NCBI RefSeq assembly: GCF_035084215.1
Contig: NC_090345.1
Location: 25,048,001-25,112,000 of the forward strand
DNA from: Heptranchias perlo
Taxonomy: Eukaryota
Length of the DNA: 64,000 bases
Direction of reading: 5' to 3'
Part shown: one piece after another, positions 1,380-64,000 of the stretch
Layout of the letters: each line of letters opens with the position of its first letter
Position numbering within the stretch: position 1 is the first letter of the stretch
Program-made: the position numbers and the translations under genes
The notes under the pieces: model-generated
Databases searched by the model: none
What the model was told of the DNA's origin: nothing
What the model saw: the letters and a program-made list of their open reading frames with translations, nothing else

Positions 1380-1524
1380 CTTTTGTTTCTCTAATAACAA
1401 TGGCATTCAATAATCCTTTTCCTCTTACAGCAGTCACTATATCTGAAGGCAGTTTCATCAGCTCACTTCGGAGGAGCATTCCCATTTCCTCCGCATTTTC
1501 TGCCAAGTTTTCTTCTTCAAGTAC
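1380..1524 (-). CDS. OAT: Ornithine aminotransferase, exon 9 (145 bp); final exon 10 lies outside the window
   Basis: Translates [48 protein letters not shown]; AG/GT boundaries; phase consistent with exon 8. Confidence 0.97.
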
Positions 1525-2269
1525 CTGTATATTTCAGTTAAACGGATATTGCAAAAAAATCAAAAGTTTAGCCCAGTCATTCTTTACATATTTTTTAATC
1601 CCACTAAATTTAACATTAAAATGTTTAGGAACAGGAAACGCCCACGAGGCTTAAACAAACATTTCCCTTTTCACAGGTACCACCTACCTGCCCACCTCAC
1701 TACATCCCTCATATTTTTCTCTTGAAACCATTTATATAATCCATTTCAGAGGCCTTTCCTGATGACTTAGTCAACAACTCCATCATCCTTTGAGTGAAAA
1801 GGTTCCACCAGATATGCCTACTTACTTCAAACATCCTCATTTTTAAACTGTGTACCTGAAACCTTCAAAGTGAACAATTTTCCTTAATATTAAATTTTCT
1901 TCACAATCTTGAAAACTTCAGCTTGAAGTCTCTTGTCCAAAGAAAACTGTCCTTAACCTTCCCACACAATTTAAATCTCTAGAATTTATCAAACTACTGC
2001 CTTATCTCCAACCTGCCTGTTCTCACCAAGGGCCCTGAACATGCTGCCATCCAACTTTGCAGCATGGCCCCTAGCATTACCTGAACACCCTCCAAATTTC
2101 TGATCTGCTCACAATACCTGGGACATGAAAGTCGTGAACATTCTATGTGCCTGCAACTATGAGCTCATTGTTCAGCAACCACTCCATTCGCCAATATCTT
2201 GTGCATGGCCACCTTCAGTGTGTTCCATTTCTACATGTTGTAATATAGCCACCTTCTCCTACAATGCAG

Positions 2270-3200
2270 AGTGACATCTGCAACATGCCCCAGGTTCTAT
2301 CCTTAGTCCTCTTATCACTTACATGCTATCCCTCTAGATATTATTTGAAAGCATGGGATAAGCTTTTGTGTGTGTCAATGACACCCAATTCTACCTTTCT
2401 GCCATGGCTACCCCAAGGATGTGGCTACACTTTCAGATTGTCTGTCCAACCTCCAAGTCATTGTTGAGTTGAAATTTTCTTCAATTGACATTGGCAAAAT
2501 CAAAGTCATTGTTTTCAGTTCCTATTAGCATCTATGTAGATCTAACTGCAGCTCCACCAACCTCTCAGCTCAGGCTGAACCAGAGAGTGTGCACAACCCC
2601 AGCTCAACCCTGAGCTGAGATTCTTAAGCTACACATCTGGTCAGCTGTCATACTTCATTTTTCCACCTCCAGAACATTGCCCAACCGTTGTTCCCTGCTG
2701 AAAAACCCTAATACATGCCTTCATCACCCCAAGGATCAATTTCTCAAATGATTTCACCAATTTCCCTTCCTTCAGCCTTCACAAGTTTTGGTTAATCCAA
2801 AACTATTTCATGTTCTCTCACAGACAGTTCTACATGCCAAACACTTCTTTTCTTACCAAGTTCCACAAGCTACCTTTCACTCAGCTTATCAACCACAAGG
2901 CTCTTGTCCTAATTTTCAAATTCCTCCCGTCTCTCACCACCTTATCTGAGAAGTCTACTTCAGCCACATGCCCACCCACATCCTAGGTTCCTCCAGTTCT
3001 AGATTACTGTTCACCCCTTGCTCCACCCTCAGAGACCAATCTTTGGCACCACTGTCTTGCTCTTTGGAACTTTGCCCAAAAATAACTTTGCCTTGCTAGC
3101 CCATTCCTTCCTTCTAAAGCTTATAGGCCCATCTCTTTAGTCATAATATAATTCTCCCCCCTCTTAATTTCTCATCTGTTACCTGGTCAGTATCCTCCTC
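2270..3200 (+). mobile_element. Old L2-clade LINE 3' fragment
   Basis: Decayed PQGSxL / DDTQ-like RT segment, similar to 22282-23365. Confidence 0.6.
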
Positions 3201-20560: not shown

Positions 20561-21398
20561 GTGGCGAAGGGGATGATCAAATCTGATGCATTGACTGGCT
20601 TTACATAGACTTGATGAAATGTTAACTCTGTTTCTTTCTCCACAGATGCTGTCTGATTTGCTGAGTATTTCCAGCATTTTCTCTTTTCACAAGCTGTTTT
20701 TTTAAATTTTACAAAGAAACGCAAACGATTTCGGCTATTTTTTTTTCTCTGAAAGGTTGACTTACGTGGCATCTGTCAGGCTAGACTTGTGAACACTTCA
20801 CGTATCAAATACTATTATTTGGATCTGTGGCATAAGATCATGTGGAAAATTCGCTCCCCACCCTTTAAGTAGCGACTGGAGAGTAATTTACAAGGTTGTG
20901 CAAATCTAGGAGCAAAATATTACCGTAGAAATTCGGCCACGTTAACTTCGCTTTGAGTTCTGCTCCAATGTCTGGAGATGCACTTACACTGCAGTTACTG
21001 GTAGCTACAGTTTAGGTCCTAAGCTACAGAAGTGTATTTACATTGCCTGACTGCTACCTGGTAGGAGCGGCCTTCCTTGGGGGAGCTCAGTGCACTTGCT
21101 TGGATACAGGTGCCAGCAGGGATTTCTCCCACAACAATGGAAAACTTAAATGTTTAGAAAGCAGGAAGGAAAATAACCCTGCTCGTTATACAATTAAGTT
21201 GAGGTTAGGTAGGTTTACAACATACCCAAGAGATTCATTAGACCCTTGAGCACTTTGCAAACCAGGTTTAATACTGCACTGGAGTTACATTCTATGTTGT
21301 GTCAAACCAAGATGTGGAGATGCCGGTGATGGACTGGGGTGTACAAATGTAAGGAATCTTACAACACCAGGTTATAGTCCAACAGTTATATTTGAAAA

Positions 21399-21435
21399 TC
21401 ACAAGCTTTCGGAGGCTTTCTCCTTCGTCAGGTGA
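21399..21435 (-). ncRNA. Minimal hammerhead ribozyme motif (opposite arm)
   Basis: Reverse complement of 21513-21549. Confidence 0.78.
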
Positions 21436-21512
21436 GTGTCGAGATTCATTGAAAATGATCGCATATATAGTCATAGAACTTTATGAATCTCGATTTCAAT
21501 GAATCTCGACAC

Positions 21513-21549
21513 TCACCTGACGAAGGAGAAAGCCTCCGAAAGCTTGTGA
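21513..21549 (+). ncRNA. Minimal hammerhead ribozyme motif
   Basis: UCAC-CUGACGA-A-GGAG/AAAGC/CUCC-GAAA-GC-UU-GUGA. Confidence 0.78.
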
Positions 21550-22079
21550 TTTTCAAATAAAACTGTTGGACTATAACCTGGTGTTGTAAGATTCCTTACA
21601 TGTGTCAACCCAAAGCAGTTTGAGACTTACTCCTCTGTGGAGTTTTGCTGTGCTTTGCTATGGCCAGTTCATGTGGTGATTTACACTGGCAGCTTGCAAT
21701 AGCTAAAATCAATTTAAACTGACAGTAAATTTGCAATATAAATGTACCTAAGATTGGACTCTGAAATCAAAGCAAATTGGGAACAAATGTAAGTTGAGCC
21801 TTTTAAGGGCTTCTTAAGCACTAATTAATGTAGCACGTGAATGAAAGAAAGAATATATTCCACTAGCTTATGCTGCAATCACTGATTTACTGTGGCAAGA
21901 AAGTGATCTTAATAACTTTAACTGGCACAGTTCTGCCTGAATCACATGTGCTGCTTCTCCCCACCCTGACTCATGTTTCTCTGCCTATCCACCTTAAGTG
22001 GGTTGTTTTGTAAATGGTGAGTCACTGTGAGGCAGCAAACTCAATACAAATAAAATGATTTACATTTCAATTGTTGCAG

Positions 22080-40100: not shown

Positions 40101-42941
40101 CAGCAGAGAACTTCAGAAGGAAGAAAGAGAAAATTGTGATGAGAAACAGGGTAGTAGAAGTAGGAATGATGATAGAAATCAGGAGGGACAAGTGAGTGAA
40201 CATGTTTGTGCCAAAGAGAAAGAGAGGAGATACATGACTACCATCCTGGGAGAGCGAAAAAAGTTGATGAGTTATAATAAAGAAGGCATTAGGAAAGACA
40301 AAACAGTGAGATCAAAGCAAACCAAAAAAGACAAAAGGGCAAGAGACACATGAACCTATAAAGTCAAAGTTAGCCAATGATTGTGCTCTGGAGCATTAAT
40401 TACTATAAAGGGGAATGTGTACACAAACATTTCAAGATAATTGCAAGAGTGGTGGCTCAATAGATAAATTATCAAGTATGAACTACTGCTGGAAATTCGA
40501 AATACAGGTGTAATCAAATCTTCTATTCCTTTATCATCTCTCTTACATCAATGTATCTTAATAAAGTTTAGCTCCCTTGCACACAACCCCGACAAGTATG
40601 GTCTATCAATTACTATAATAAATGGCATTTTAAAGCTATTTCACCCAAACTAAACTATTTTTAACGAACAACAAATGAACCTGGTTCTAAATTCATTAAT
40701 CGTTATACACTGTTTACCCTCCTGTAACGCTCAATTTTTATACAGCGGATCAAAAGTATTTTACGGGTTGCTAATGCAGAATCAAACTATCTAGACGACG
40801 CTTGAACTAAATATGTAGTCGCAGAAAAGTACCATATTTTTACACTGTTTTCTATTTTCCCCATTTAATCAAATCACTTACTTCTATTTTCAAGGTACTA
40901 TTTTACTTTCCTTTTCCCTTCTTTTCTGTTTTACTTTATATTTACGAAGATCCCTGTTGGTTGATCTTAAACCAACTATAGTTGTATAAATTCTGAACCT
41001 ATTGATTGTTTTTCCCCATCAGTCCGCTCAACCACTGGTCGCTTAGCCATCTAGGGTATTTTTTTCTCTTCATTACGATCCTAGAAATAGTAGTTACGCC
41101 GGGATCTTGGATCAGTGGAATTTTTGACCCATTTGTACTGATTGTAGTGTAGCATTAGGGATTGTAACCGCAAAACCCTACAAAGCACAGCATGCTACAG
41201 TAAATAAAACGTGAAATCATAGACTGGCTATTTGACATTTCTTGCGTTGAACTCTGTGGCCTCCCTCCTCCCCGCTACGTTCTTCCGTGGTATTTTAAAT
41301 TTGTTATAACAAATTGGTGACGGTATAGATTATGTTTTGGTAACTTGAAAATTACAGGGTCAATTGTAATTGGATCCTTTTCTAAAAAAAAAGTTTAAAA
41401 TCGACCAACGATGGACTGTCCCACTGAAAATTACCCGTAAGTGCTCAGATGTCAGGTAGCATTCGTCTAAAGGTTGCCCAACTTGAACAGGCGTTTTGTG
41501 TGTGAGAAAGAGATGCCAAGTACACCATCATTTCAGAGCAATGGTCAGAAATCGGGTATGTGGCCAGTGCTGTGAAAAATCATGTATTGTGAATTCGGGT
41601 ACTAGAGTGAAAGTGCAGAGCACTACTTGGGCATCATTTTGGAATGAATGTTAGCTCCTCTCCCCCAATGTGCAAAAGTAAGATTTTAATAACGACATCG
41701 TTTATCACACGTTCAGTAATTGCATAGTTTATCATTCGACTTGGGATATTATAATAAATCGTGGGTATATGACTTTTGTTTTGAAAGGAATGTAAGGAGG
41801 ACACAGTCAAATGCACTGATCGCATCCTGTTTGGGACGAAGCTAAGCAATACTTAAAGGCAGATGGAGAGTTATGACAGGATTCACGAAAAAGTGTCCAA
41901 AATCTACACCAGCCACGATGTGCAATTAGAGTTTCAGATTTTAACAGATCGATAATGCCATCTGTTAAAGGTAAGTTTTAATCGAAAAATATTTGGACCT
42001 TCGATCTGCTTCAGACTCGCGTTTTCACGGCTGTACCTGCAAGCTGTTGGAAGGAGATATGCACAAGTCAGTAATAGGATATCGATCATTTGAGCAGCGG
42101 CATCCTCCATGGGACGATTTAAACAATTACCCAGGCTCTCTCCCAGTGCCAATCACACCCAGCAAAGAGCTGTTATTGAACAACTGTAATTGTTTTTCAA
42201 GATATAACAAGTAGTGTATATCATATTTATGATTTCGGTGGATTTCACGATAAGAACATAAGAGGCGAAATATTAAATTAAAATGTACTAAATATGGAAT
42301 GACGTAGAAGTGATCATAGCGAAATTATTTTAAACGAAACAAAATAGTTGTTTCTCATTTTAACATATACTTTCCATAGTAGATGTGGTTATAGACACGT
42401 TTAGGAAGAGCAGATACATTTTGCAAAGACTTAACCGAGTCTCTCCATTACAAAAACGCATATATTGAGCGAAAATTATTTATATGACTCATGCACTAAT
42501 TAATTTTAGTTACTACTCTTGATCGCGCCCTGGAAAGTAAAAAAAAAGCCTGGAGTTATGTAGTACTGTGTCAGTAAACAAATACTTACCTGTACCCATA
42601 AAACTACAACGTTCTTTTGCAACCAAATTCTTGTCAATTTCATAAATTCATAATAACATCTGCCTCTGGGTTGGTTTGGAAGCACGTGGGTTAGGAAGGA
42701 GATGGTCTAGTTGTTCATTTAATAACATTATTTTCGTTGGAAAGTTAGGCTAAAATAATAGCGTAGACTAAAACAAGAACTGTGCACTTTCTTTAAAGAT
42801 TTCAATAAAAAGCCTTTAAGAGGCCCAGCAAAAGGACAATGTAACTTTGGTACAGTTAATACGAAGACCCATTAATGCAATTGGTGTTGTTATTAAAACA
42901 TCGTGACACCGACTAAAGAGCAGACTGTATTATTTACTCAC

Positions 42942-43182
42942 CAGAATCGGTGCCGATTTGGTTGCTGTTCTTTTCAGCACTTAGTTTTACACCTGTCTCC
43001 TTTAAACTCTGTTCTCCACAAGTGAGTACGTGCACATCACTGCTTTCATTTGGCCCATTCTCCTGCAGCTCAAACGGCTGGGGCTTGCCGGTAAATTTTT
43101 GGGGGTCGAGTATATCTATGATGGAGAAGGATATCTTGTGGGTGGGGGCCATCTCTTCCCCACTGTCCGGGCACTCGAACAT
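42942..43182 (-). CDS. NKX1-2: NKX1-2 exon 1 (eh1/TN repressor motif)
   Basis: MFECPDSGEEMAPTHKISFSIIDILDPQKF; donor G|GTGAGT; 241+623 bp = 287 aa plus stop. Confidence 0.93.
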
Positions 43183-47874: not shown

Positions 47875-48002
47875 ATGATGGCTGAATGGTGTGAGCCTGC
47901 AGGCAGAGTGAGAGGAGTGCTGTTAGATATTAGCGGGGTTCTGTATGATAGTGGGGAAGGAGGCGGGGTTCCAATCCCCGGCTCCGCCGAAGCGGTGAAA
48001 AG
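47875..48002 (+). CDS. LHPP: Phospholysine phosphohistidine inorganic pyrophosphate phosphatase, exon 1 (start could be 47878); later exons not found in the window
   Basis: MMAEWCEPAGRVRGVLLDISGVLYDSGEGGGVPIPGSAEAVK; HAD motif I variant DISGVL typical of LHPP; donor AG|GTGAGT. Missed by the ORF track. Confidence 0.95.
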
Positions 48003-48959
48003 GTGAGTGTTAAAGCTGCGTTAGAAGTCTGTGTGCTCAGTGGGAGAGAAAAACTCCCCGGCACTGTATGTGACTGATGTTAGGTGACACGGCTTTGGGT
48101 CTTTGTCAGATACGCAATGATCAAACATGAGTCTTGTGAGGATAGTCTATGTACTGCTAACCCTCTTGGGATGGGATGGCAAGCTGTCTCCACCTTTTTA
48201 GTAGTTTATTAGTAAACTACAAGTACTGGATCTGCCAAGTAGTATCTACTATTTCTGGCTGAAACATCCAATGTGTTTTTCTAAGCTCCGCCTTTTGAAA
48301 ACCAATCTGTCTGCTACCTTCCGATTGATTTCTTTAAATATCCCCACACTTAGCAGCTATAGTGGTATTCAGGTGGGAGTGCCTGTGGAAAACCGTCTGA
48401 ATCCAAACTGCAATGATAACATGTTCGTTTCTCATTTAGTACTACAAGCCTCCGCAATTTTGTTGTGGTTGAAATTAATTGAACAATTCCAAAGGTTTAA
48501 AAAAACAAAACTTAAAAAAAAATTGTGTGCTGGTCACATACCAACAAGTCGGCCAAAATTCATTGGGTTACACATTGGGGGATTGAAAGGAAACTCCATA
48601 ATTTCAGAAAATTACTCCATGTGACCTAAACGATAGTAGGCAAGTGGCTTCAGCATTGTAGGTTAGGGAGGGCAAAGTTGGTCAGGAGTCCACATTTACT
48701 TTTAAAGCTTGTGTGAATAAAGACAGAGCTATATGGAATTATTTTTTTAAGGTTTCCACCTCCAAGTTGTAAACTATAAAACTGTTTCTATGAGATTGCC
48801 TGTGAGTATACATTTTTATAGACTGTGTTGCTACACTAGTAGTATTAATTGAAGACAGTGGATGGTTCTCTACATATAAAACCCCTACTGATTAATGTTT
48901 CTACTTAATATCTGCTCATGGGTAGCTTCAAAGCAGCAAATGTTACAGAGGAAACATGC

Positions 48960-49915
48960 AAACATATAAAAGGGTGAGGAAAGGCCATCAGCCCTATTAA
49001 GCCTGCCCCGTCCAATATGGTGCAACTACACACAGCACTGATCCATCCTCTAATCATGTAATTTCTTGGAAGAAGCAAAAAACAAGTGGAAAAAGCCTGT
49101 ACTCAATCCAGGAAACACTCAGAAACTTCTGTCCGATTCCCTAAGGTAAAATGCCAGGAGAGTGTGGTTCCTGTAAATCACAACTAGTAGTAACTTGCTC
49201 TCAATAACCTGAAATGTCTGCTTCATTCATGCTTTGAAAGGACTGCAGCATATCCATACCCACAAAGTATTCAGGTAGTCTATTCCAGAGTGTGACAACT
49301 CTCTGGAAATAAATATTTCCTGACATCTAACTTAAGGCTTTGCCTGCATGTTTTACATGCATGTCCTCTAGTTCTAATATCCTTATCCATCTCAAATAAC
49401 TTATTTGCAACCTGAGTTCAATCTCCATGATTTAAAAAACTTCTAGCATATCATATCTAAGTCTTTTCTCTAAGCTACATAGCCCTAACTCATAGAGGCT
49501 ATTGTTATAAACTAAGAACTCCTGGGTTAGCTGTCATTCTGGTCCCCCTCCTTTGCACCCTCTCAGGAACCTCAATATCCTCGCTATGTGCAAGGGCCAA
49601 AACTGGACACTTTCAAGTGTGAACGTACGGATGCCTTCATATATAGTGTAAGTCTAGTACTCTTTGCTTTATACCTGACAATCCTAGCTGTACAACCTAA
49701 AATCCTATTTTCTTTCCCAATAGCCTCCTCACACAGCTTGTGTAACTTTAGTGAATGACCAATATCAACCCATGTGCTTTTCCATTTGTTGTCCTTGGCG
49801 TGTACCCCAAGCATGATGTAAACATGCCTGGAGTTTCCCAACCTCGAATGATCCAACATCTATCCACACTGAAGGACATCGGCCATACACTGGCTCATTC
49901 CCCAAACTTGTCTAC
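48960..49915 (-). mobile_element. Old CR1 3' fragment in LHPP intron 1
   Basis: NRILGCTAR...LTLY...VRSHL; CR1-type tail. Confidence 0.7.
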
Positions 49916-50007
49916 GTTAAGTGTGGAGCCAAAAAAGCGGTGACAAACACAGTAATTCTTTTTTCTGATGTTTAGAAAATGCTCCAGTACTTTGGTGATC
50001 TTTGTAA

Positions 50008-50396
50008 AGAAAGAAAGACTGAACTTGCATTTATCTAGCGCCTTTCATGACCTCAGGATGTCCTAAAACGCTTCACAGCCAATTAAGTACTTTTTTGCAG
50101 GGAACTCAGTAGCCAATTTGCACACAGCAAGGTCCCATAAACAGCAATGAGCTAATCACCAGATCATCTGCTTTAGTCATGTTGATTGAGGGATAAATAT
50201 TGGCCAGAGAGAGCTCAGCTGATTTCCTAATAGTGTCATGGGATCTTTTATGTCCATCTGAGAGAGCAGACAAGGCCTCGTTTAACCTCCAACAGTGCAG
50301 CACTCCCTCAGTAATGCACTGAAGTGTCAGCCTAGATTAAGTGCTCAAGTCTCTGACTCAGAGGTGAGATTGTGACAACTGAGCCAAGGCTGACAC
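50008..50396 (-). mobile_element. Deu-domain SINE (internally deleted)
   Basis: Reverse homolog of 50939-51392. Confidence 0.85.
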
Positions 50397-50938
50397 CTCT
50401 AAAGTGTTATAAGTGCAGAATTTCAATTGGCTTTATTTTTTCATATTTTATGTTAAGGAGACCACTTTAATGAATTACTGAAATGGAAAGTAATGAGAAA
50501 GGAGCATTTATTTTAAAGAAATGAGAACGGTATCTATGTTTTTAATTAAAAGACATTAATAATGAGCACAAAACTATAATAAATTATACAAGTAGTTTAT
50601 CCAACAATAATAGCACCTGTCAGAAGGGGAAGGATTATTTCCAAAGTTGCTTCAGGATGCAGTAAGAAGCTTAACATACTGTTGGAATGTTCATGTTGAG
50701 CACTGAAACAACTTCTCAGTTCCTGCATATAAATGTCATTAGTTCAGTGTGAGTGGTTTTGAACAATGTTTTGATGTATTTTACCTCTTATATTTATTGA
50801 ACTTCAACTTTAGTTTTTCTATAATGATTGAAGTAACTATTAAGGAAGCTATTATTTAATTAAGAGAGATGGATATTTTATGACTGCATGGCTGACTCTA
50901 CAGAAAATCACTGCACCCACTGCAGTACCTGGCCGGTC

Positions 50939-51392
50939 AGCCATGGCTCGGTTGGTAGCACTCTTGCTAATGAGTCAGAAGGTCATGGGATCAAGTCCTA
51001 CTCCAGAGACTTGAGCACAAAATCTAGGCTGACACTTCAGTGCAGTACCGAGGGAATGCTGCACTGTTGAAAGTGCCATCATTTGGATGAGATGTTAAAT
51101 CGAGGCCCTTTCTGCATTCTCAGGTGGAAGTAAAAGATCCCATGGCACCATTTTGAAGAAGAGCAGTATAGTTTTCACTGATGCCCTGGCCAATATTTAT
51201 CCTTCAACCAAAATCCACTAAAATAGGTTATCTGGTCATTATCACATTGCTGTTTGTAGGATCTTGCTGTGCGCAAATTGGCTGCTTCTTTTCCTACATT
51301 ACAACAGTGACTATGCTTCAAAAAGTACTTAATTGGCTGTAAAGTGCTTTGAGACGTCCTGAGGTTATGAAAGGCGCTATATAAATGTAAGT
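50939..51392 (+). mobile_element. Full-length tRNA-headed Deu-domain SINE with L2-type tail
   Basis: A-box TGGCTCGGTTGG, B-box-like GGATCAAGTCC, central domain, tail GGCGCTATATAAATG shared with L2. Confidence 0.88.
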
Positions 51393-52689
51393 ACATATAT
51401 TAAAACCAAAACATTCACAAAGGAGCACGAAACTGTTCATTTTTCCATAGTTGCAACATTCCAGTACTTTGTATGTTACAGTGGGAGCCTTGAGCTGATT
51501 AAAGGACTAATCACAGCCTTCTGCTTTAATTAGCTCCACTTTCTTTCCCTCCCCTCCCCCCTTCCCCCAACACCGGCACAAACCATATTGGAATTTTCAT
51601 GATAGCCAATACTAATTGAAATGATTTTCATGCAAATTATGGGTATATAGCAGTACAGGGTGTGTTGTTTGTGATCTGCCAGGTTCCTTTTCAGCATGGG
51701 TCATGCGCCACGTGCTGCTGCTTGCTCCCTTGGCCAATTAGCAAATTGGACTGCCCTTTTCTGTAATTAATATTGTACGGTCAAAATTGAAGAAATGTAC
51801 CTTTTACCAATTCATAGAGTATTTAATTAAACTAAACCTTGTGGAGTAATCTTGCTAAATTTTATCTTTGGGGCAGAATTGCTACTGTAATCCTCAAAAG
51901 GTTAATAATCAGTAACGTGAAATTGTTCTGTTAAATTGCCAGAGTTTTAATACTGCTGCAGGATGTAATTTGTGCTTCCTTTTTCCTATTTTAGATTGAT
52001 AAAATATCTTTTTGAGTCTATTGTAGCTTAATTTTTCCAAGCATTGCACTCATTTCTTTCATCCAATTCAATAATAGTTACAACACCAGGATGTGTTTCA
52101 GTTCTATGAATTTTCGTTCTGCAACCAGCAGTGGCCTTTGCACATAAAAATCAATGTATTGAAAATAAGTGTGTAAAATACAGAATAAATTGGGTTCCTG
52201 CCTTATTTGGAAATCCTTTCTGAACTTTCTCATGCATCTTCTTGGCTTTAACTGATTTCAACCTGACTGGATTAAAAGCTGGTCAGAAGTTGTAGACCAC
52301 TTGATGTAGTGAGTAAAATGTTCTGAAAGAACATTGGAAATATAAGGCCAAAACCCAGTTTATCATCTACTAAAGGAAAATCAGCCAGGATTCCTGCATC
52401 TGATCAGTGTCTGGTGGCCTTTTCTGGAACTGCAAAAATGATATGCAAATATTGCAAAAATGTAATGTGATCTGTGGTGGAATAGCTCACTAGCAGACTT
52501 ATCAAGAATAATAGATGGGATGAAATGTTACTTTGAAAAGATACCTCACTAGCAGGAGAGCGGAGGTAAGGAGAACACCATCCTGTTATGAGTCTAAACC
52601 CAGATCACAGATGAAAGTGCATTCTATAAACTACCTGTACAAGAGGCACTTTCAGATTACTGTGATTTGCATACAAATTTAACATAGTC

Positions 52690-54320
52690 AGAGAACCACA
52701 AGGTGCTGGAGGAGGTTGCAGAGGATGGAGTGGTCATGGAGGGGTTTGAGTTGGGGACAGGAATTTTAAATCAAATGTGTTGGGGGATCAGGGAGCCAAT
52801 GCAGGTCAGTGAAGATGGAGGAGATGGAAGCACAGGACTTGGTGTGGTACTGGGCATAGGCAGCTGAATTTTGGATAAATTGGAGTGTATGGTGGGTGGA
52901 AGATGAGAGGGCAGCCAAGGAGCACATTGGAGGAACCAAGTCTGGAGGTGACATAAATGTGACTAAAGGCTTCAGCAGCGGAAGAACTGAGGCAGAGGCA
53001 GGCAATGATACAGAAGTGGAAATAACGGTCTTGGTGATGGATAGGATGTGGTATTTGAAACTCAGCTGTGGGTGGAACAGGATGCCAAAGTTTAGCAAAG
53101 TCTGGTTCAGCCCTACTGAGTGGCAGGGGAGTCGAGTTTATGGTAGGAGCTGTAAACATGGCATCAGTCTTCCCGATTCTGAATTGAGGAAGTATTGATG
53201 CATCCATGACTTGATATTTCATAGGCAGTCTAACAACATGGTCTTGGGGTTGAAGAAGATGGTGAGGGGCAGAGTTGGGTGTTGCAAGTGTACACATGAG
53301 ATCTGACTTCATGCCAGTGTATGGTGTCAGCAAGCAGCAACGTGTAGATGAGGAAGAGGAGGGTGCCTAAGGATAGAACCTTGAAGAACTCTAGAGGTGA
53401 CAGCAGGAAGAAAAGTAATTGCTGGAGATGGGCTGACTGTGTTACCACAGATGAAGTGGAACCAACTAAGGGCAGTTCTACGGAGCTGGTCAATGAAGGA
53501 AAAGCAATGAAAGAGGTTAGAGTGGACCAATACCAAATGCAGTGCAGAAGTCAAGGACATTGACAGATGAAGCACCACAATCACAGTAATAGAGGATGCC
53601 ATTTAGGACTTTGACAAGGGAAGTCTTAGTGCTGCAAGATGGGCAGAAGCTAGACTGAAGGGATTCAAATGGAGTTCTGGGAACTGTGGGAGCAGAGGTA
53701 GGTGACTGACTCATTTGAGGACTTTTTTAGAGAGGAAAGAGATTAGAGGCAGTAGTTGGCAATGATGGATAGGTTGACGGTGGCTTTTTTGAAGGGGGTG
53801 TGATGATACTGGTTTTAAAAGGGCATATGACAGTGCCTGAGCAAATGGAACCATTGATGTCAGCTAGGTGGGAGTCAGTAGGGCTAGTTGAGTCGTCATG
53901 AGAGGGGATCAGTAGAGCAGAAGCTTGGTCTTGGGGAGGAGATAAGTTTGGCAAGGGTGTGGGGGGAAAGACATGGAAGATAAACTGTAGAGTAATGGGG
54001 GATTGGGACTGGAATGGTTAGGAGACTAGGAAAGGTTGGGTTTTGGGAGAAGAAAGGATGGTAACTGCATAGGCAGCTGTGTGGGTGATCGTCAACCCTG
54101 AAGATGAAGACATCTGCGCTCTTTGCACTTACTGTTAGAGGTGAGGATGGGGGGAGAAGAAAGGTTTAAGGAGGCATTGGGTTGTGGAGAAAAGGATCCT
54201 TCCCTCAAGAATGATCTTGGAATAGTAAGAAGTTTTGGCAGCAAAGGGCAAGGGATGGTAGTGCTCAACATAGTAGAGCAGACTCTGGCAGTGAATGACT
54301 AGACAGGTTGTAGAGCGCCA
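52690..54320 (-). mobile_element. Old L2 LINE fragment
   Basis: STKTSLVKVLN, VLQGSIL, LQFIQNSAA, DLHWLP. Confidence 0.85.
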
Positions 54321-54899
54321 TGGATCTCCAGTGCAGTGTAAATAATTTTATTGTCTTTGGGAAATGATGATTTTATAATACCAATGAAAACTGAATTTTC
54401 TGTAACCCAGAACAAAGAAAAAAGAAACCTAAAAGGAATTCAAGTACTATTGTACATGTAGCTGTACTCACTGTATTTATTTGAATATCCAATTATACAG
54501 AAACTTGAGAGTATTGTAGCATTGTGGATATGGAAAGAGTGAAATGATACAGAACTGACCACACAAAGAAAATTTACATGGAAAAATGATCAACGTCTAT
54601 GAGAAGGGAAAAGTTATTTTGAAATTGTTCACATTAACACAACTCAATAACTAAAAGTGCTTTTGTTCTGGACAATATTTCACAACATGGTGCTAAAGTG
54701 ATACAATAATATGTCATTTATCATTATTAGAAAGTAAGCTTCACTCTACTTCTGTGAACACTGGATAACTAAATAGAAATTTAAAATTCAATAGCATTTT
54801 CTTCCAGCTTAATGTTGACAATACTCAAGCCTTCACTTTGGGTGCCTACTAGCACCTCTGGCCTTAGCTGCATCAAGCTCTCTGGCTGCTGCAGCAAGC

Positions 54900-55500
54900 T
54901 GAGGTGGGAGGTGTGGAACCTTAACCTGCTTGAACCCCCAGCTCTGTTTCCTTCTTCTCTTACCCCGAACCCTCATCCACTCCATTAGCTTTTTTCTACC
55001 TCTGCAACATTACGCAGTTCTGCTCCTACTTCTTCTCTTGCCAAAACCCTTGTCCATGGATTCATTGCCTCAAAGTTCAACTTCTAACACTCTCAAAGCT
55101 GGCCTCCCAACCTCCACAAGCTCAACTCATCCAAAATGCTGCAGCAAACATCCTCACACACTCTCAGTACTCCCTTTGCCTTCATCCTTTCCGAGTTCTC
55201 CTCGCTGCAATGAGCTGACTTCAAAATTCTCATTTTCATTTTCAAATCTTGGCATTAGTGATATCCTCCTACATTACATCCCTGTGCACACACCCTCTAC
55301 CATCGGTGGCTACTCATTCAACTGCGACATTCCTGTCCTTTGGAACTCTTTGACCAGTTCCTTAATTCCATAAAACTCTTTTCTTTGACCATGTCTTTAG
55401 TCTTCCATCCTAGCCCTCTCTCTTTTTCCCTTTTTGCTCAGTATTTGCTATTTTGCGCTCCCTAATATAAAGCTGTTTGAGATGTTTTCCTACATCTAGG
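54900..55500 (+). mobile_element. Old L2 3' fragment
   Basis: KLQLIQNAA-like DNA, VLWNSL. Confidence 0.65.
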
Positions 55501-57674
55501 GGGCCCTGTAGAAATATTGTTTGTGTTGTGATTCTACTACTACATAAATACTTAAATTCTTTTTAATGTTACTTCCAAGTTCATCTGAAATGACAGTTAA
55601 CAGAAGAATATTAAGTGGTTGCAATCTCATTGCAGTAAATCTATAGGGAAACAGTATATCCATAGAACTATAGAAGTTTGCAGCAACGAGAGGGCCATTC
55701 AGCCCACAGTGTCTATGCCAGCTTTTTGCTAGAGCAATCCAAAACTAATCCCACTGCCTTGGTTTCTTCCTATAGCCTTGTATCTTGGTCTACATCAAAT
55801 ATTTATCTTATTTTCCAAACAGATGCAATGGTCTCTGCCTCAACCACTCACCATATATAATATAGGCTGTAGTTTAAAATTTATAACTCAAAGTAATTAA
55901 CAACAGTACCACCTTGAGTTTAGCTACCGGAAGCATACATTTTTCATTAACAGCAGGATGCTGCTGTAGTGAATCATTGCTTTGTGGAAGGTGAACTGTC
56001 TGAAATCCCTATTCAGTCATAGCTCTATTTACCAGTATTTTACATTTGTATCCTGATAGCCTACCCATTGAGAGTGATTCCATATGAAAAGCAAAGAAAT
56101 GTTGGAATTTTACAACATCCTGTTGTTGGTTTGGTATAGTGCATCTGTTAGCAGAACTTTAAACAAGGAACATGGGATATTAACAAAAGACCAGCAAGTC
56201 CTATCCACGTGAAGGCAGTATGAGCAGCTGGCCAATATGTGGCCAGACAAAACCCTGTAGAGCCGTAATAGTGCCGAGATCACAGGAAAACCAGCAAGGG
56301 GCTTGTTGGTTACACAAATACACCCATAAAGCAATCTACCACCAGGGAGCCCCACATTTGTTAATTATCTGCCAAGTCTGAAACATTCTTTCTGGTAAGA
56401 AAAGATGAGTGAATCTGCCTTGGCTCTGTTTAACCCAAGCTGACCCCGACCGACAGAACTCAAATCATATTCCACCCCCATATCCAAACCAGAAGTTATA
56501 CTAGGGTAAGCCTGGCATAGGCTGGTTTAGTTGTAATTATTGAGCAATCCGTCACTTCACAACAAATCCGATTTTTGCTTTTGAGGGTGGGAGAAAGAAC
56601 TCAGTTTGGATTGGAATTTTTTACATCCTATTTATAGCGAAACTCACTGACTCATGAAGGCAGGCAGTTCTGCGATATCGGTGTCAAAATCCTAAATGGC
56701 AGCTGTTCTTAGAAGCTTTTTAGGAAGTAAACTATACATCATAAAATATAATCTTAAATGGAAGTCCAGATGGAACAGTATAGTGGAGTTGGGTAGGTTT
56801 GAATCAAATACTGTTTTTGTAGAATTAAAAAGTTGCATGCATATAATAAAAGTAACACACTGCAAAACAAATGCATTTCTTACAGAAAGCCTTGATGTTT
56901 TGATATAGCTGCATATCAGTGATTTAACATGCTCATCCTCCCCCCTATAGTCATATGATTCCAGGAGGCAGTCTCACTCATTCCCCCTCCCCTCCAAGAC
57001 TAATCAATTTAAATTTGAATTTTTTTGCTTATGTTATCTGATTACGACTCTGAAGGTCTTTGAGAATTTTTTTCTACTTTTCACTATTCATTTCTGAGCA
57101 TTGATAATGAGCGTTAGCAGGCTAGTGGAATATGGCAATATCAAAGCTGATCCTGATTCTGTCCTCGCCAGAAGGTGTGTGTGTACATACTTCCAGCGAA
57201 TGTTGTTGGATAGTCTCTCTGTGACTGTGTCTTCTGTATCATTTTCAGCTTGCGGCAAGTAACAGCTGCTAGTGTATAGTTTTGATTTTCATCGTTGTAC
57301 CGCCCATCTTCTGTAATAGTTCTGCAAAGATGTACAAATGTATCCACTTGTTCTTTTCATATCCAGGAGATCTATACTACATGTGGACGGTAGAGTATAA
57401 ACTTGTAACCTTTTTGTATTCTTGGGGTCCATGTGAGATTATATAAACTCCTGTAGTGAGATCCATAACTGCTCTAGATTCTCTTGCAGTTTATCAACCC
57501 CCTCTCCCCCTGCAAATGTAGTACTTCCTCCTAAGTAACAAATTCTGTATCTAAATGCTTTTGTTTTCATCCTTGTGTCATTTTTTTTATGTTCACTTGA
57601 ATCGACTGCCTTATTTTGCCTCCTTTATTTGTATTGTTTTTAACTGAAGAGTTTCCATAACCAAAAAGAAGTGC

Positions 57675-57714
57675 AGACTGCCTTGTGCATAATAGACTGC
57701 CTTGTGCATAATAG
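57675..57714. repeat. 19-bp tandem duplication AGACTGCCTTGTGCATAAT x2
   Basis: Direct reading. Confidence 0.9.
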
Positions 57715-58977
57715 CCACACAACATTGACTATCGCTCAACATAGCCTCCATCAGCAAAAAGTAAATATCAGTCAAATCAATAGCAAGCCCCCTCCCCAAG
57801 TAGAGGTTGAAACAAATTTTATTTATCCAGGACAGGAATTTATTTTAACCATTAAATGCATTATAATTTTTTCACGAAAGCCACAAGTTAATAGCCACTT
57901 TTTGAACACTTTCCATCCCTCCCCCCGAACCCAGTCTCTTTTTATTAGTTGTTGTACTATTTGAATTATATGACCAACTATTCTGGAGACCTAAAAGCTA
58001 TGAAGAAAGTGTACTTCACCATCTGTAACAGTGAGCAGGTGCTCCTCCAAACCTTTGCATTCTTCAGGGTTAATGTTTCTCCCTTGCCAGATGTCTGGTT
58101 ACTAATTATAGGAGGGATAACGTGTACTTGGCAGCGGAAATAATAAATGAGTTTAATGTTTTTGTGGGTGGGATATTCAATTTCACCAAAAATTAAAAGA
58201 TCTAAGCCAAACACTAGCAACCAGTAGCTACCAACTGAGAGCCACAATAGGCAACAGCAAAAGCCTTATTCCGTGGATGGGAAGAATTAACCCTTTGAAG
58301 CCCCCCTTCCCCGTCACAGTGCTTTCATGCACTGTTAGCTACATGCCACGGTTTATGAAAATTTTGCCAATCACCTTAACTCATTTGTTTTTAGATGGTG
58401 CTTCTGTCGGAAATGCCTTTTCTAAATATGACTTTTGATGTATTAGTTCATGTTTATTTAATGGGACAATGGATACAAATTATATTTGTGGTAACTTTCT
58501 TTACCTGGACCTGTTTTCAAGAATAGTTGTGCACTTATGAGCATTTGTTCTGTCTTACACTTTGCATTGCAATTGTAGCCAATGAGTATTGTAAATTGTA
58601 CCTTCTAAATGCTTTGTATACCTAACTGAAAACTATTAATCTGCCTAAAAGAGTTAAACACGTTGAAAACAAATCTAAGAACTAATAATCTGTCAGGAAT
58701 GTACTGGGTAAAGCACGAGCAGAATAAGCCGATAATGTTTTTGGAGTGGAAATATACTATAACCTGTTTTTTCCTTTGGATGGAAAAAGTTTTTTGTACT
58801 AAACCTGTTCATTTAACAAAAGATACACGTGTCTTATTTATGGTACATTATGTCATGGCTCTAAATTTATGCTTTAAACAGTGAAATACAATCCACCTGA
58901 TGTGTAACTGAAACCAGTTCCTAAAATGCCACCTGATTTAAAGCTGGAGAGAATATTGCACTACTACTAGTAGGGAT

Positions 58978-59100
58978 AAGAACATAAGAAATAGGAGCAG
59001 GAGTAGGCCAATCGGCCCCTCGAGCCTGCTCCGCCATTCAATAAGATCATGGCTGATCTGATCCTAACCTCAAATCTAAAGAACACAAGTAGGAGCAGGA
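58978..59100 (-). mobile_element. Very short CR1 3' end with a partial second terminus
   Basis: TAAGAACATAAGAAATAGGAGCAGGAGTAGGCC...; AAGAACA...TAGGAGCAGGA recurs at 59079-59100. Confidence 0.75.
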
Positions 59101-59573
59101 TGCATTACATGTGTTTGTTTTAGAAATGTATAACATTTCTGTATTCATGAGCACCACGGGTAGGAATGAATTGGGTGTTTCTCAAGCGAAATAAACCTAG
59201 AAATGCATTGCTCTTAGAATAGTATTCTGTGTACTCTAAGTCTTTGTATAAGTTGCACTTCAAACATTTTAGATTCTCTAAATATATAAGGGTGTGATTT
59301 AGAGGTTTACTGAAGAGCTAAGCTCAAATAGGGGTATGACTTGTTAGAGTTTTATTTCATTGTAACTTTCATGTGTAATCTTTTATTTTGTTTCCATTTG
59401 TTATTTCATTAAGAAAATTGAACACTTGCTCCTCACTTAATGCTGTAAAGCACTTATATTCTTCTTTCCAAAATGGTTGTAAATTTAGTTCCATATTTGA
59501 ATAATTTGTTGCTTGTCTTGTTTGTGCACTTTTCTTTTTAAGTGAGCAATGCTTTGTGTAGGTTGAGGTTTTG

Positions 59574-60247
59574 GGCCAGGAGTTTCCTCCATATTTGTGT
59601 CCAGATACGCACGTAATCTGGGCGCAAACCAATTACGTGCCTTAAAAGATCGCAGAATTTTGGGCATAAGTGAGTTACGCGCACAACTACAATACGCCCA
59701 AGTCTCCTCGATCATTTAGATCCATCCGTCCAACTCTCCGTCCAAATGAATCTCCATCCATGAAGCTGGCCAGGCCCCCGACTCTCAAATGTGAGAATCC
59801 TCCAATTGCGCTTGTTCAGAGAGTTCGCAGCAGGAACAAAGTCATTTTTCTGGTCTTTTAATTGCAATTTGTGAGCGGTTTAAAAATTTTTTTTATCCTT
59901 ACTGAGACTTGCTCTGTATTTTCTGTTTCAATGTGTTTTTATGGTTATGTATAAGTCACATTAAAAATTGAAAAGTTTCCACGATTGCAGGTTCTTAAAA
60001 ATGCCGTGATGGTTAAATGGGTTGAAATTTTACATTTTAAGACTCAAAGAAGAAATATACTGGTGTGGGTACAATGTTTCCTTGGGGCCCCAGTTGTTTA
60101 CACTGATTTATGCCAGTTTACGCCCATTTTGAGTTTGGGCATATTCTAATAAGATTGGGAGGATACTTGGGAGTTTTTTGACATCGGTGAAATGGGCACA
60201 GCTTCAGGTGCAATTTTGGGTGCAACCTCCGGAGGAAACTCCAGGCC
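59574..60247. mobile_element. MITE-like element, possibly PIF/Harbinger
   Basis: 17-bp TIR GGCC(A/T)GGAGTTTCCTCC with one mismatch; 3-bp TTG duplicated on both sides. Confidence 0.75.
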
Positions 60248-61016
60248 TTGATATTTGGGCTGCAACTCTGTCGTTCTGACTTCCCAGTTGAGTGTATGTG
60301 AAATGCAGCATTTACATCAGTGAGTAATATTTTCTTGTGTGAAAATATCTCGAGCACTCTTATTTTCACAGCTGTGAATATTTAGTAGAAACTGGTTTGG
60401 TCAGAAATAGGAGGACCTATAGTCTGCATAACTTGAAGCCCATTTGTGTTATGAGGTGTGGAGTAGATACATTTGAAATCTGTTCCTTGGGAAGCAATTG
60501 CGGAAGTGTAATTCTCCCACTTTTCACTCATTAAGCATTTCACTCAAACCTGATTTTCAATTGAATATTGATTTCATGAGCGGTTATCAAATCAAATGTC
60601 AGAATCCAGGGTGTTACACTTTGTTCTCTGCATTGGCACAGATCCACCAAAGAACATTTGACTGGGCATGGACCACAGCCTGGTGTGTTTAGGCTTGTAA
60701 GTCAGTTGGAATCGGCTGCACAAATGATTGTGGAACCCAGTTTTCTGCATGAATTATGCCAAGTGAAATTGGATTTAATATGATCTAAACCAGTTTCTAA
60801 ATCACTGTGTTTAGATACTTGCGTTCATAGCTACCGCTTTCATGGATCAAAATTGCACAGTTTGATGTACAATTTCCCAAATTTATTTATTTTTGCTTTA
60901 CAAGGTAAGAGATCTTAGTGCTAAGAAATGATGTGGAGATGCCGGTGATGGACTGGGGTTGACAATTGTAAACTATTTTACAACACCAAGTTATAGTCCA
61001 ACAATTTTATTTTAAA

Positions 61017-61057
61017 ATCCACAAGCTTTCGGAGGCTTCCTCCTTCCTCAGGTGAAT
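61017..61057 (-). ncRNA. Minimal hammerhead ribozyme motif (opposite arm)
   Basis: Reverse complement of 63092-63132. Confidence 0.8.
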
Positions 61058-61317
61058 GTGGAACTGAAACCCTCGAACCTATCGCATTTATAAATCACAG
61101 AACAATGCCTGGTGATTACAGAGAGTCTTTTCAACTGCCCGTTGCCAAGGCAACCAAAGTGTTCAGACAGATAGGTGTTACCTACAGGCCCACCGAATAT
61201 ACAAATGTCCAGAACTAAAAAAACAGATGATGTGGAGATGCCAATTAAAAAAACAGAGCGAGAGAGGTAGAAACATAGAAACATCCGGAAGGAAAAGACA
61301 GCAATTGACCTGTTATA

Positions 61318-62580
61318 TTAAAAACAGATAACATTTGTTCGCTGGTGGGCTAACGTGTAGCGTGACATGAACCCAAGATCCCGGTTGAGGCCGTCCTCAT
61401 GGGTGCGGAACTTGGCTATCAATTTCTGCTCGACCATTTTGCACTGTCGAGTGTCTCGAAGGCCGCCTTGGAGTACGCTTACCCAAAGGTCGGTGGCTGA
61501 ATGTCCTTGACTGCTGAAGTGTTCCCCGATTGGGAGGGAACCCTCCTGTCTGGCGATTGTTGCGCGGTGTCCGTTCATCCGTTGTCGCAGTGTCTGCATG
61601 GTCTCGCCAATGTACCATGCTCTGGGGCATCCTTTCCTGCAACGTATGAGGTAGACAACGTTGGCCGAGTCACAGGAGCATGAACCATGCACCTGGTGGG
61701 TGGTGTCCTCTCGTGTGATGGTGGTATCTGTGTCAATGATCTGGCATGTCTTGCAGAGGTTACTGTGGCAGGGTTGTGTGGTGTCGTGGATGCTGTTCTC
61801 CTGAAAGCTGGGTAATTTGCTGCAAACGATGGTCTGTTTGAGGTTGGGTGGCTGTTTAAAGGCGAGTAGTGGAGGTGTGGGGATGGCCATAGCGAGGTGT
61901 TCGTCGTCATTGATGACATGTTGAAGGCTGCGGAGAACATGGCGTAGTTTCTCCGCTCCGGGGAAGTACTGGACGACGAAGGGTACTCTGTTGGTTGTGT
62001 CCCGTGTTAGTCTTCTGAGGAGGTCTATGCGATTTTTCGCTGTGGCCCGTCGGAACTGTCGATCGATGAGTCGAGCGTCATATCCCGTTCTTACTAGGGC
62101 GTCTTTCAGCGTCTGTAGGTGTCCATCGCGTTCCTCCTCGTCTGAGCAGACCCTGTGTATTCGCAGGGCCTGTCCATAGGGGATAGCCTCTTTGACGTGG
62201 TTAGGGTGGAAGCTGGAAAAGTGGAGCATCGTGAGGTTGTCCGTGGGCTTGCGGTAGAGTGAGGTGCTGAGGTGCCCGTCTTTGATGGAGATTCGTGTGT
62301 CCAAGAAAGAAACTGATTCTGAGGAGTAGTCCATGGTGAGCTTGATGGTGGGATGGAACTTGTTAATGTTATCGTGTAGTCTCTTTAGTGATTCTTCGCC
62401 GTGGGTCCATAGAAAGAAAATGTCGTCGATGTATCTGGTGTATAGCGTTGGTTGGAGGTCCTGTGCAGTGAAGAAGTCCTGCTCGAACTTGTGCATGAAA
62501 ATGTTGGCGTATTGGGGTGCGAATTTGGTCCCCATGGCTGTTCCGTGTGTTTCGGTAAAGAACTGGTTATCGAAGGTGAA
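61318..62580 (-). pseudogene. Penelope-like RT (C-terminal part) plus GIY-YIG endonuclease; frame uninterrupted but 5'-truncated
   Basis: GTAMGTKFAP, RYIDDIF, LYRKPTD, CxxxxCxxC linker, NVVYLIRC...YIGET...RMNGH, GLNRD. Confidence 0.93.
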
Positions 62581-62770
62581 CCAGTTGAACCAGGAACACT
62601 TCTCACCACGATGGACGTCTCGGCACTCTACACCAGTATCCCCCACGATGATGGTATCGCTGCGACAGCATCAATACTCAACACCAACAACAGCCAATCT
62701 CTAGACGCCATCCTACAACTCATCCGCTTCATCCTGGATCACAATGTCTTCACCTTTGATAACCAGTTTC
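62581..62770 (+). pseudogene. Inverted upstream piece of the same RT (motif A)
   Basis: Plus strand reads PVEPGTLLTTMDVSALYTSIPHDDGI...LIRFILDHNVFTFDNQF, the segment that should precede the minus-strand ORF. Confidence 0.9.
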
Positions 62771-63091
62771 TTTCTTGGGTTCATGTCACGCTACACGTTA
62801 CCCCACCAGCGAACAAATGTTATCTGTTTTTAATATAACGGGTCAATTGCTGTCTTTTCCTTCCGGATGTTTCTATGTTTCTACCTCTCTCGCTCTTTTT
62901 TTAATTGGCATCTCCACATCATCTGTTTTTTTAGTTCTGGCCATTTGTATATTCGGTGGGCCTGTAGGTAACGCCTATCTGTCTGAACACTTTGGTTGCC
63001 TTGGCAACGGGCAGTTGAAAAGACTCTCTGTAATCACCAGGCATTGTTCTGTGATTTATAAATGCGATAGGTTCGAGGGTTTCAGTTCCAC

Positions 63092-63132
63092 ATTCACCTG
63101 AGGAAGGAGGAAGCCTCCGAAAGCTTGTGGAT
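63092..63132 (+). ncRNA. Minimal type-I hammerhead ribozyme motif (Penelope pLTR)
   Basis: AUUCAC-CUGAGGA-A-GGAGG/AAG/CCUCC-GAAA-GC-UU-GUGGAU: core boxes, stems I and II, palindromic AAGCUU stem III. Confidence 0.8.
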
Positions 63133-64000
63133 TTTAAAATAAAATTGTTGGACTATAACTTGGTGTTGTAAAATTGTTTACAATTGCTAAGAAATGGAAC
63201 ATTTTACCCATATCTGGCACCTTGTGTGAGGATCAAGTGCTTCCAAGTGAGACGTAGCAGTGAATAGCTTCTTCCAGTCTTCCCCATCCTTGGAAAACCC
63301 CTTGCTGCATCAATATGGCATTTTTTTCCATTTCTGTGGGATTTCTGAGTGAGGTTATCAAATCGGAGATGATTTTGTGCTTTGGGCCCATGCTTGCCAA
63401 GAACTGATTTCACATAAGTCCATCGCAGACGGAGGTGACTTTTCATCCCATCAGTCTGAACTGGATCCATCCAATTCCCTCACCAGATTTTAGATGTGAT
63501 AATTTACCATTAATAAAATTGAGAGCCTCTGGACTTGGCCAGCAGCAGTAAGTAATGACACAATTCTAGTTTGCCACACAAGTTTAAAGGAATTTTATTC
63601 TGAGGTTTATACCAAGTAGTGCTACCTGGTCAAATGTTCCAAATGGAGAACATTTATATTCTTTAGCATCTAGCAAAGCGTGAGCAACTCTTCTGTCTCT
63701 TCCAGTTTGCATCTGAAAATGAATGAATTTGTCCAAACCTCATTCACTGATGTAGATCACTTTCAACACCCACATACCCATGGCATAAAGGGGTCATGGA
63801 ATTTAGATTTACACAAGGTCAGTTGGGATAGTACAGTAATTGTCATAATGCTTACCTGTTCTGGGGCAATAACAAATGCTTTTCATTATTTGCACATGAC
63901 TGAGCGTGGCAGATGCTGACAGCCAGCAGATGTGTAGAATTCTGGGTGATTTGTAAGGAGTTGCACATCTGACGTTCAGTAATTGCATTGTGGGACATCA

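Follow-up and report, generated by a model that had tools for sequence, protein, structure and literature searches.

The closest systems described so far, as presented in the accessible parts of the sources cited here, are the Penelope-like elements (PLEs) of metazoans and the ribozymes that they carry. These elements harbour minimal type I hammerheads, with CUGANGA and GAAA boxes and no helix III (PMC4209133; reviewed in PMC6765202), in which an extra base stands between positions 9 and 10.1, G10.1 pairs with C11.1, positions 15.2-16.2 are palindromic and helix II has 7-8 bp; opposite-strand pairs of such motifs are known, and in vitro the monomers were inactive and the dimers weakly active (PMC4209133). 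The inverted-arm layout has likewise been described, in Adineta (PMC3846280) and in PLEs generally (PMC8557442): in Pen2a_Av and Pen2 of Adineta vaga an inverted, 5'-truncated copy stands head-to-head with its partner, a tail of 30-40 nt at one end runs into the ORF start, and the target duplication measures 9-10 bp (PMC3846280; scheme in PMC8557442, fig. 2). How these arms are made has been called still undefined (PMC8557442). The Poseidon element PAc of Anolis carolinensis has a tail bounded by two end positions and a hammerhead in the pLTR, upstream of both; in vitro, both target strands were cut and extended and reverse transcription started at the two sites bounding the tail, and the hammerhead needed the element's protein, no reads in the Anolis RNA ending at the cut site (PMC11167929). 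The Neptune clade, as defined in PMC8557442, has a C-terminal GIY-YIG endonuclease with two cysteines between GIY and YIG, and a CX2-5CxxC finger in the linker between reverse transcriptase (RT) and endonuclease, which is given there as absent from Penelope and Poseidon. Two other kinds of hammerhead carrier have to be considered: the type I motifs inside amniote introns (RECK and others; PMC6155905), and the non-LTR retrozymes, which consist of head-to-tail non-coding repeats with same-sense hammerheads.

Here, we describe a PLE insertion in a window of 64,000 nt from the shark Heptranchias perlo (the window being the whole stretch of DNA that was analysed, to whose first letter all positions refer). 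It is a 5'-truncated element of the Neptune type, a real, well-preserved and ordinary copy, and its palindrome with two hammerheads is the usual insertion footprint of its family. In our view it very probably represents one insertion, whose arms, tail and target duplication likely arose at integration and which sits in intron 1 of LHPP most likely as an inert passenger. In spite of its similarities with the systems above, which extend to the minimal motif and its opposite-strand pairing, the head-to-head truncated copy, the one-sided tail running into the ORF start, the position of the hammerhead in the pLTR and the location of a type I motif inside a vertebrate intron, this copy shows several differences: (i) helix II has 5 bp, against the 7-8 of metazoan PLE hammerheads (PMC4209133). 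(ii) Compared with Pen2a_Av and Pen2, as those are described, the target duplication has 12 bp, a direct upstream pLTR is missing from the 5'-truncated copy, the inverted arm has a gap of 1,180 nt, and the host site is a vertebrate intron. (iii) PAc belongs to another clade, and in it the hammerhead already contains the ORF start, which in the shark element lies about 120 nt after C3. (iv) The amniote intronic hammerheads are described as canonical and conserved across species, whereas the motif found here is minimal and belongs to a repeat present in tens of thousands of copies. (v) Unlike in a retrozyme, the two motifs lie on opposite strands and flank ORF sequence. By title, the main articles of the openly searchable literature yielded nothing on shark Penelope hammerheads, two-template PLE integration or shark inverted-repeat editing; the supplements of PMC4209133 may list shark motifs.

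The insertion and its host gene

The insertion is flanked by a 12-bp direct repeat, TGCTAAGAAATG, at 60919-60930 and 63185-63196 on the plus strand. The last 3 nt of the left copy are common to the end of the tail and the first 2 nt of the right copy to the end of the arm, so that only 60921-60927 belong to the duplication unambiguously; even so, no other duplication length is as common in the family as 12 bp (19 of 42 palindromes), and this length, like the age given below, is an indirect estimate. Inward of the left repeat lies a tail of 32 nt (60931-60962, minus strand) that has no mirror on the right. Aligned to the full-length copy L113, it is element sequence (unit positions 3036-3068), the stretch that separates the short pLTR end from the start codon of the ORF. 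The left arm (60963-61378, minus), which comprises the end of the ORF and the pLTR/3' UTR, and the right arm (62773-63186, plus), which comprises the ORF end and the pLTR and forms the tail-less end, align over 414 paired columns; 5 substitutions and a single gap of 2 nt separate them. A frame without stops extends from 62580 to 61318 on the minus strand, its 420 codons corresponding to residues 483-902 of the 902-aa full-length copy. The sequence-only reading had already described arms of about 415 bp with few mismatches, a 12-bp target duplication, a tail of about 32 nt on one side only and an uninterrupted frame of about 420 codons, and on each of these points our measurements bear it out.

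Mapping the copy onto the 3,071-nt natural unit of L113 reveals an additional piece that was absent from that account. The tail, the left arm and the ORF together correspond to unit positions of about 1447-3068 on the minus strand, and the plus-strand parts to 1278 to about 1470 (at 62580-62768) and then to about 2650-3035 (the right arm). The first of these, an inverted upstream RT piece of 189 nt, overlaps the 5' end of the left arm's copy by ~20 nt. The right arm thus represents a second copy, itself truncated, missing about 1,180 nt of the unit and joined at 62769-62776 (plus) through a TCTT microhomology and a few added bases.

The 420-codon frame retains the second half of the RT (YIDD), a CX4CxxC linker finger at codon 271 and, behind it, a GIY-YIG-type endonuclease with the motif VVYLIRCRKGC...YIG, whose two cysteines stand between GIY and YIG as in Neptune. 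As an intact protein it is ruled out, since it has no start, the N-terminal 482 residues are missing and RT motif A is encoded on the opposite strand. Its RVT_1 match is weak (E 9e-6, below the Pfam cut-off); the 902-aa ORF of L113 gave E 4e-10, over the cut-off, and was one of the full-length frames present in 2 of the 60 fetched 10-kb loci. Pfam made no GIY-YIG call on the window frame or on the 902-aa ORF, and PF01541 is found in many homologues of the protein. The identification as Penelope-like, with RT and GIY-YIG, is upheld. Three features of an endonuclease-bearing (EN+) PLE are found here: RT followed by GIY-YIG in one ORF (the 902-aa ORF of L113 together with the window motif), pLTRs in tandem or inverted, and a tail of 30-40 nt at one end (32-35 nt, at the left end only, with 41 of 42 palindromes alike). 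The CX4CxxC finger falls within the CX2-5CxxC of the Neptune definition and would, by the criteria of PMC8557442, place the element in Neptune or Nematis, apart from Penelope and Poseidon; Nematis also has the finger, and the Neptune label follows from these criteria. The closest named relatives are shark proteins, with identities of 94-97% in H. perlo itself, 80-85% in Scyliorhinus torazame and 79% in Mustelus asterias.

That the insertion lies in LHPP intron 1, as had been proposed, is corroborated by two results: exon 2 matches human LHPP (PDB 2x4d) with E 1.7e-22, against just 3e-6 for HDHD2, and contigs from three of four shark sequencing runs, presumed to be RNA, join position 48002 to exon 2. 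Coding exon 1, from the first ATG to the splice donor, occupies 47875-48002 on the plus strand (TIGR01458 positions 1-52, supported by its translation, the donor site and the contig joins), and with the TIGR01458 profile the plus-strand exons are collinear from 47908 to past the window end. Since the contigs leave the window at 48002 and enter exon 2, the intron runs from 48003 to the window-equivalent position 68231 (20,229 nt in total, of which 48003-64000 lies in the window). In one contig of run X5 (organism B), exon 1 is joined at 48002-48004 to exon 3-like letters, a possible skip of exon 2. A minus-strand exon at 42900-43130 reads MAPTHKISFSIIDILDP... and resembles the start of an NKX1-type homeobox gene. 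Two further copies of the family are found inside LHPP, at window-equivalent 111092-112366 and 117860-117986 (L153 and neighbours), both of them antisense and without an inverted arm.

The insertion had also been called young, which holds only in a relative sense. Change amounts to ~0.6% per arm and ~0.75% in the body, and the arms differ by 1.2%, slightly less than the family median of 1.7% among 25 long-armed copies, 9 of which are less diverged; this need not mean recent. At the rate of 7e-10 per base per generation given for the epaulette shark in PMC10587355, the age comes to 4-9 million generations, surely an overestimate if errors of reverse transcription contribute.

The hammerheads and their abundance in the genome

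Each arm carries the motif CUGAGGA-A-GGAGG(AAG)CCUCC-GAAAGCUU, closed by a 6-bp helix I. The right-arm hammerhead (63092-63132, plus) is sense in LHPP pre-mRNA and has stem I at 63092-63097/63127-63132, C3 at 63098 and U17 at 63126, 3' of which the cut is predicted; its left-arm counterpart (61017-61057, minus, with C3 at 61051) is antisense. With the core present in both arms, a sense hammerhead and its antisense partner are found as the sequence-only reading had announced. All four features of the minimal hammerhead are present: the core boxes, the extra base after A9, the G10.1-C11.1 pair and the palindromic 15.2-16.2. The covariance models of Rfam, which had been proposed as the test of the call, matched no hammerhead family, whether in 6 kb (E up to 5) or in 81 nt (E up to 10), as is expected of a minimal motif without helix III, for which Rfam is the wrong test; one match to Xist_exon4 (E 1.1), outside the element, was a chance match. 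The palindromic AAGCUU that had been read as stem III needs trimming, helix III proper being the 4-nt AGCU, with the outer A and U belonging to the core as A14 and U17. In the minimal motif this helix III would be intermolecular. Work by Lunse et al. on dimer cleavage is cited in the review PMC6765202. The suggestion that the ribozyme needs a same-sense partner agrees with the dimer dependence already published in PMC4209133.

In the alignment of variants the invariance of the core is not independent evidence, the core being fixed by the search pattern. Among the 34 of 82 variants that were seen at least twice, 90.6% of the cells of helices I and II are paired, and 4 of the 11 pairs have changes on both sides. 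The level of pairing was matched by 2 of 500 shuffles and the number of two-sided pairs by 91 of 500, and slid controls gave 27-47%. These alignments of related sequences suggest, with modest support, compensatory change in both helices.

The pattern has 72,911 exact matches genome-wide (36,533 on the forward strand, 36,378 on the reverse; the reversed control gave 0), or about 22 per Mb, compared with about 4,000 in coelacanth and 9,000 in Xenopus as reported in PMC4209133, where the search method differs from ours. Among the first 100 matches listed there are 38 neighbour pairs within 5 kb, 22 of which are divergent (5-6 for each other orientation), and 44 of the 100 belong to divergent pairs; extrapolated from this one contig end, the genome would hold roughly 16,000 such pairs. 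We also sorted 60 loci into 83 insertion clusters, leaving out clusters less than 60 nt from a locus end: 42 are palindromes with both outer ends complete, which is not an unbiased rate, as the loci are the top matches to queries from the window and two locus pairs share flanks. In 41 of these 42, one end is tailed and the other tail-less. A duplication of 10-16 bp flanks 35 of them (exactly 12 bp in 19), whereas draws of mismatched flanks reached a maximum of 8 (814 draws). The window itself contains a second palindrome, of 300 nt (21308-21611), which is ORF-less, belongs to a related subfamily and has two opposed hammerheads and a tail at one side.

Taken by itself, the LHPP locus matters little, and its value is that of one sample from a very large natural record. 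This record, of ~73,000 minimal hammerheads together with clean two-armed insertions numbering in the thousands in a single shark genome, is a resource on the formation of inverted arms; it could also show whether editing of, or selection against, long palindromes in introns takes place in cartilaginous fish.

Probable origin of the palindrome and predicted consequences for the host transcript

Within one insertion, 25 of 55 pairs of arms are identical over 85 nt, with a mean of 1.7 differences; between insertions this holds for 95 of about 2,960, with a mean of 5.8. At each of the six differences between the arms of the window copy, one allele is rare, occurring in 0-2 of 140 other loci. This likeness and these rare alleles indicate that both arms derive from one source variant and later drifted. 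The likely history is a single insertion during which arms, tail and target duplication were all made. By analogy with the Anolis element, as it is described in PMC11167929, the endonuclease would cut both target strands, here about 12 nt apart. Reverse transcription would then be primed from both cut ends, at two sites of the element RNA about 33-35 nt apart, the start codon giving the tailed end and the upstream site the tail-less end, and the two truncated cDNAs would be joined 5' end to 5' end. The about 1,180 nt missing from the right arm may have been lost by a template jump or by later deletion in a 1.6-kb palindrome.

Did one RNA serve as template, or two? Two of the 55 palindromes, at L277:1725-1997 (G000:C1 about 4023020-4023300) and L275:603-1548, have one 12-bp duplication and one tail, and each arm carries a different common hammerhead variant, set apart by three linked changes that fall in helix II and in its loop. 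In L277, each arm has 2-3 differences in 90 nt from other loci and 5 from its partner, and in L275 the signal is limited to the helix II patch. These cases hint at two RNA templates, and gene conversion would fit them as well; a third candidate, L106, was dropped when direct alignment spoke against it. An extension of the scheme, which we regard as unlikely, is a two-RNA particle in which two element RNAs would pair through the palindromic AGCU of the hammerhead, much as retroviral RNAs do at their dimerisation signal, and a dimer of the protein would prime both cut ends simultaneously. If true, it would account for the mirror arms, the one-sided tail and the mixed-variant insertions, and the genome would hold some 16,000 self-silencing hairpins of the type 'antisense first, ribozyme last', a large source of nuclear double-stranded RNA.

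In the minimum-energy structure predicted for the insert as a whole, each of the 41 hammerhead positions is paired to the left, antisense arm. The duplex of the two arms is worth -770 kcal/mol and the hammerhead with its antisense -89.6, compared with -12.0 for the hammerhead alone and -23.1 for the two-copy dimer (the catalytic dimer was scored by hand, and an unconstrained fold of two sense hammerheads gave another dimer). Sequestration of the ribozyme by the long duplex, as the sequence-only reading had it, is therefore a sound prediction from folding. In LHPP pre-mRNA, the antisense arm would emerge first and pair with the sense hammerhead, for which cutting would anyway depend on a same-sense partner or on the protein of the element; a second sense hammerhead was sought in LHPP, with 0 further sense matches in 96 kb. 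By likeness to inverted Alu pairs, it is plausible that the duplex is edited by ADAR before leaving with the spliced intron. Processing by Dicer is less likely, the intron being nuclear and spliced out. The four runs, aligned against the insertion, produced only piles of paralogous copies; most of the unique flanking sequence was left uncovered, and no contig bridged the entire insert. Among these piled copies the frequency of A>G and T>C differences in the largest run, apparently DNA, matched that in the two presumed-RNA runs. An AATAAA lies at 63138-63143 in the right arm, on the LHPP sense strand and 12 nt past the predicted cut site; it may be a cryptic polyadenylation signal and is predicted to lie inside the duplex.

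The further proposal that the duplex protects the host transcript fares worse as a statement of function. Sense hammerheads would, on this reading, harm host pre-mRNAs, and palindromes would persist in introns because the duplex silences them, an explanation to which we give very little credence. It can draw on the strongly favoured sequestration and on the geometry of the insertion, whose 3' ends point outward, so that transcription from either side would run into the antisense arm before the sense one. A preprint (10.64898/2026.07.22.740005) reports a depletion of tandem hammerhead retrozymes in Xenopus introns. The introns that we examined, 896 kb in LHPP and four genes found by collinear PF01094 exons (inner exons being checked only for the C6 gene), held 8 palindromes; 2 sense and 3 antisense hammerheads had no partner there, and a looser pattern added 1 more antisense match, so that 8 of the 10 sense-strand motifs have an antisense partner. 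However, the palindrome is the family's default product and is about equally frequent in the position-ordered and the other samples, and the 2 sense copies without an antisense arm have intact cores, one of them in a gene with 6 sense hammerheads. The inactivity of monomers in vitro, as reported in PMC4209133, and the Anolis RNA, in which according to PMC11167929 no reads ended at the cut site, point the same way. The palindrome is thus likely a harmless by-product and not a safety device, although the unpartnered copies, 2 sense and 3-4 antisense, may with such small numbers remain compatible with mild selection against unprotected sense copies.

That the palindrome was made after or apart from one integration, by two adjacent insertions or by DNA fold-back copying of one arm, is highly improbable: the family does insert into its own copies, forming nested clusters, and one variant in both arms is what DNA copying predicts, but a single direct repeat flanks both outer ends, in 41 of the 42 palindromes these ends coincide with two family-wide positions (about 3035 and 3070), and the right arm contains unit positions 1278-1447, which are missing from the left arm and so were not copied from it. 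Elsewhere in the genome, same-strand hammerheads ~3,080 nt apart occur at L278 (G000:C1:4434900-4442400) and at C1:4461018-4467212, which are full-length head-to-tail tandems and candidate source arrays.
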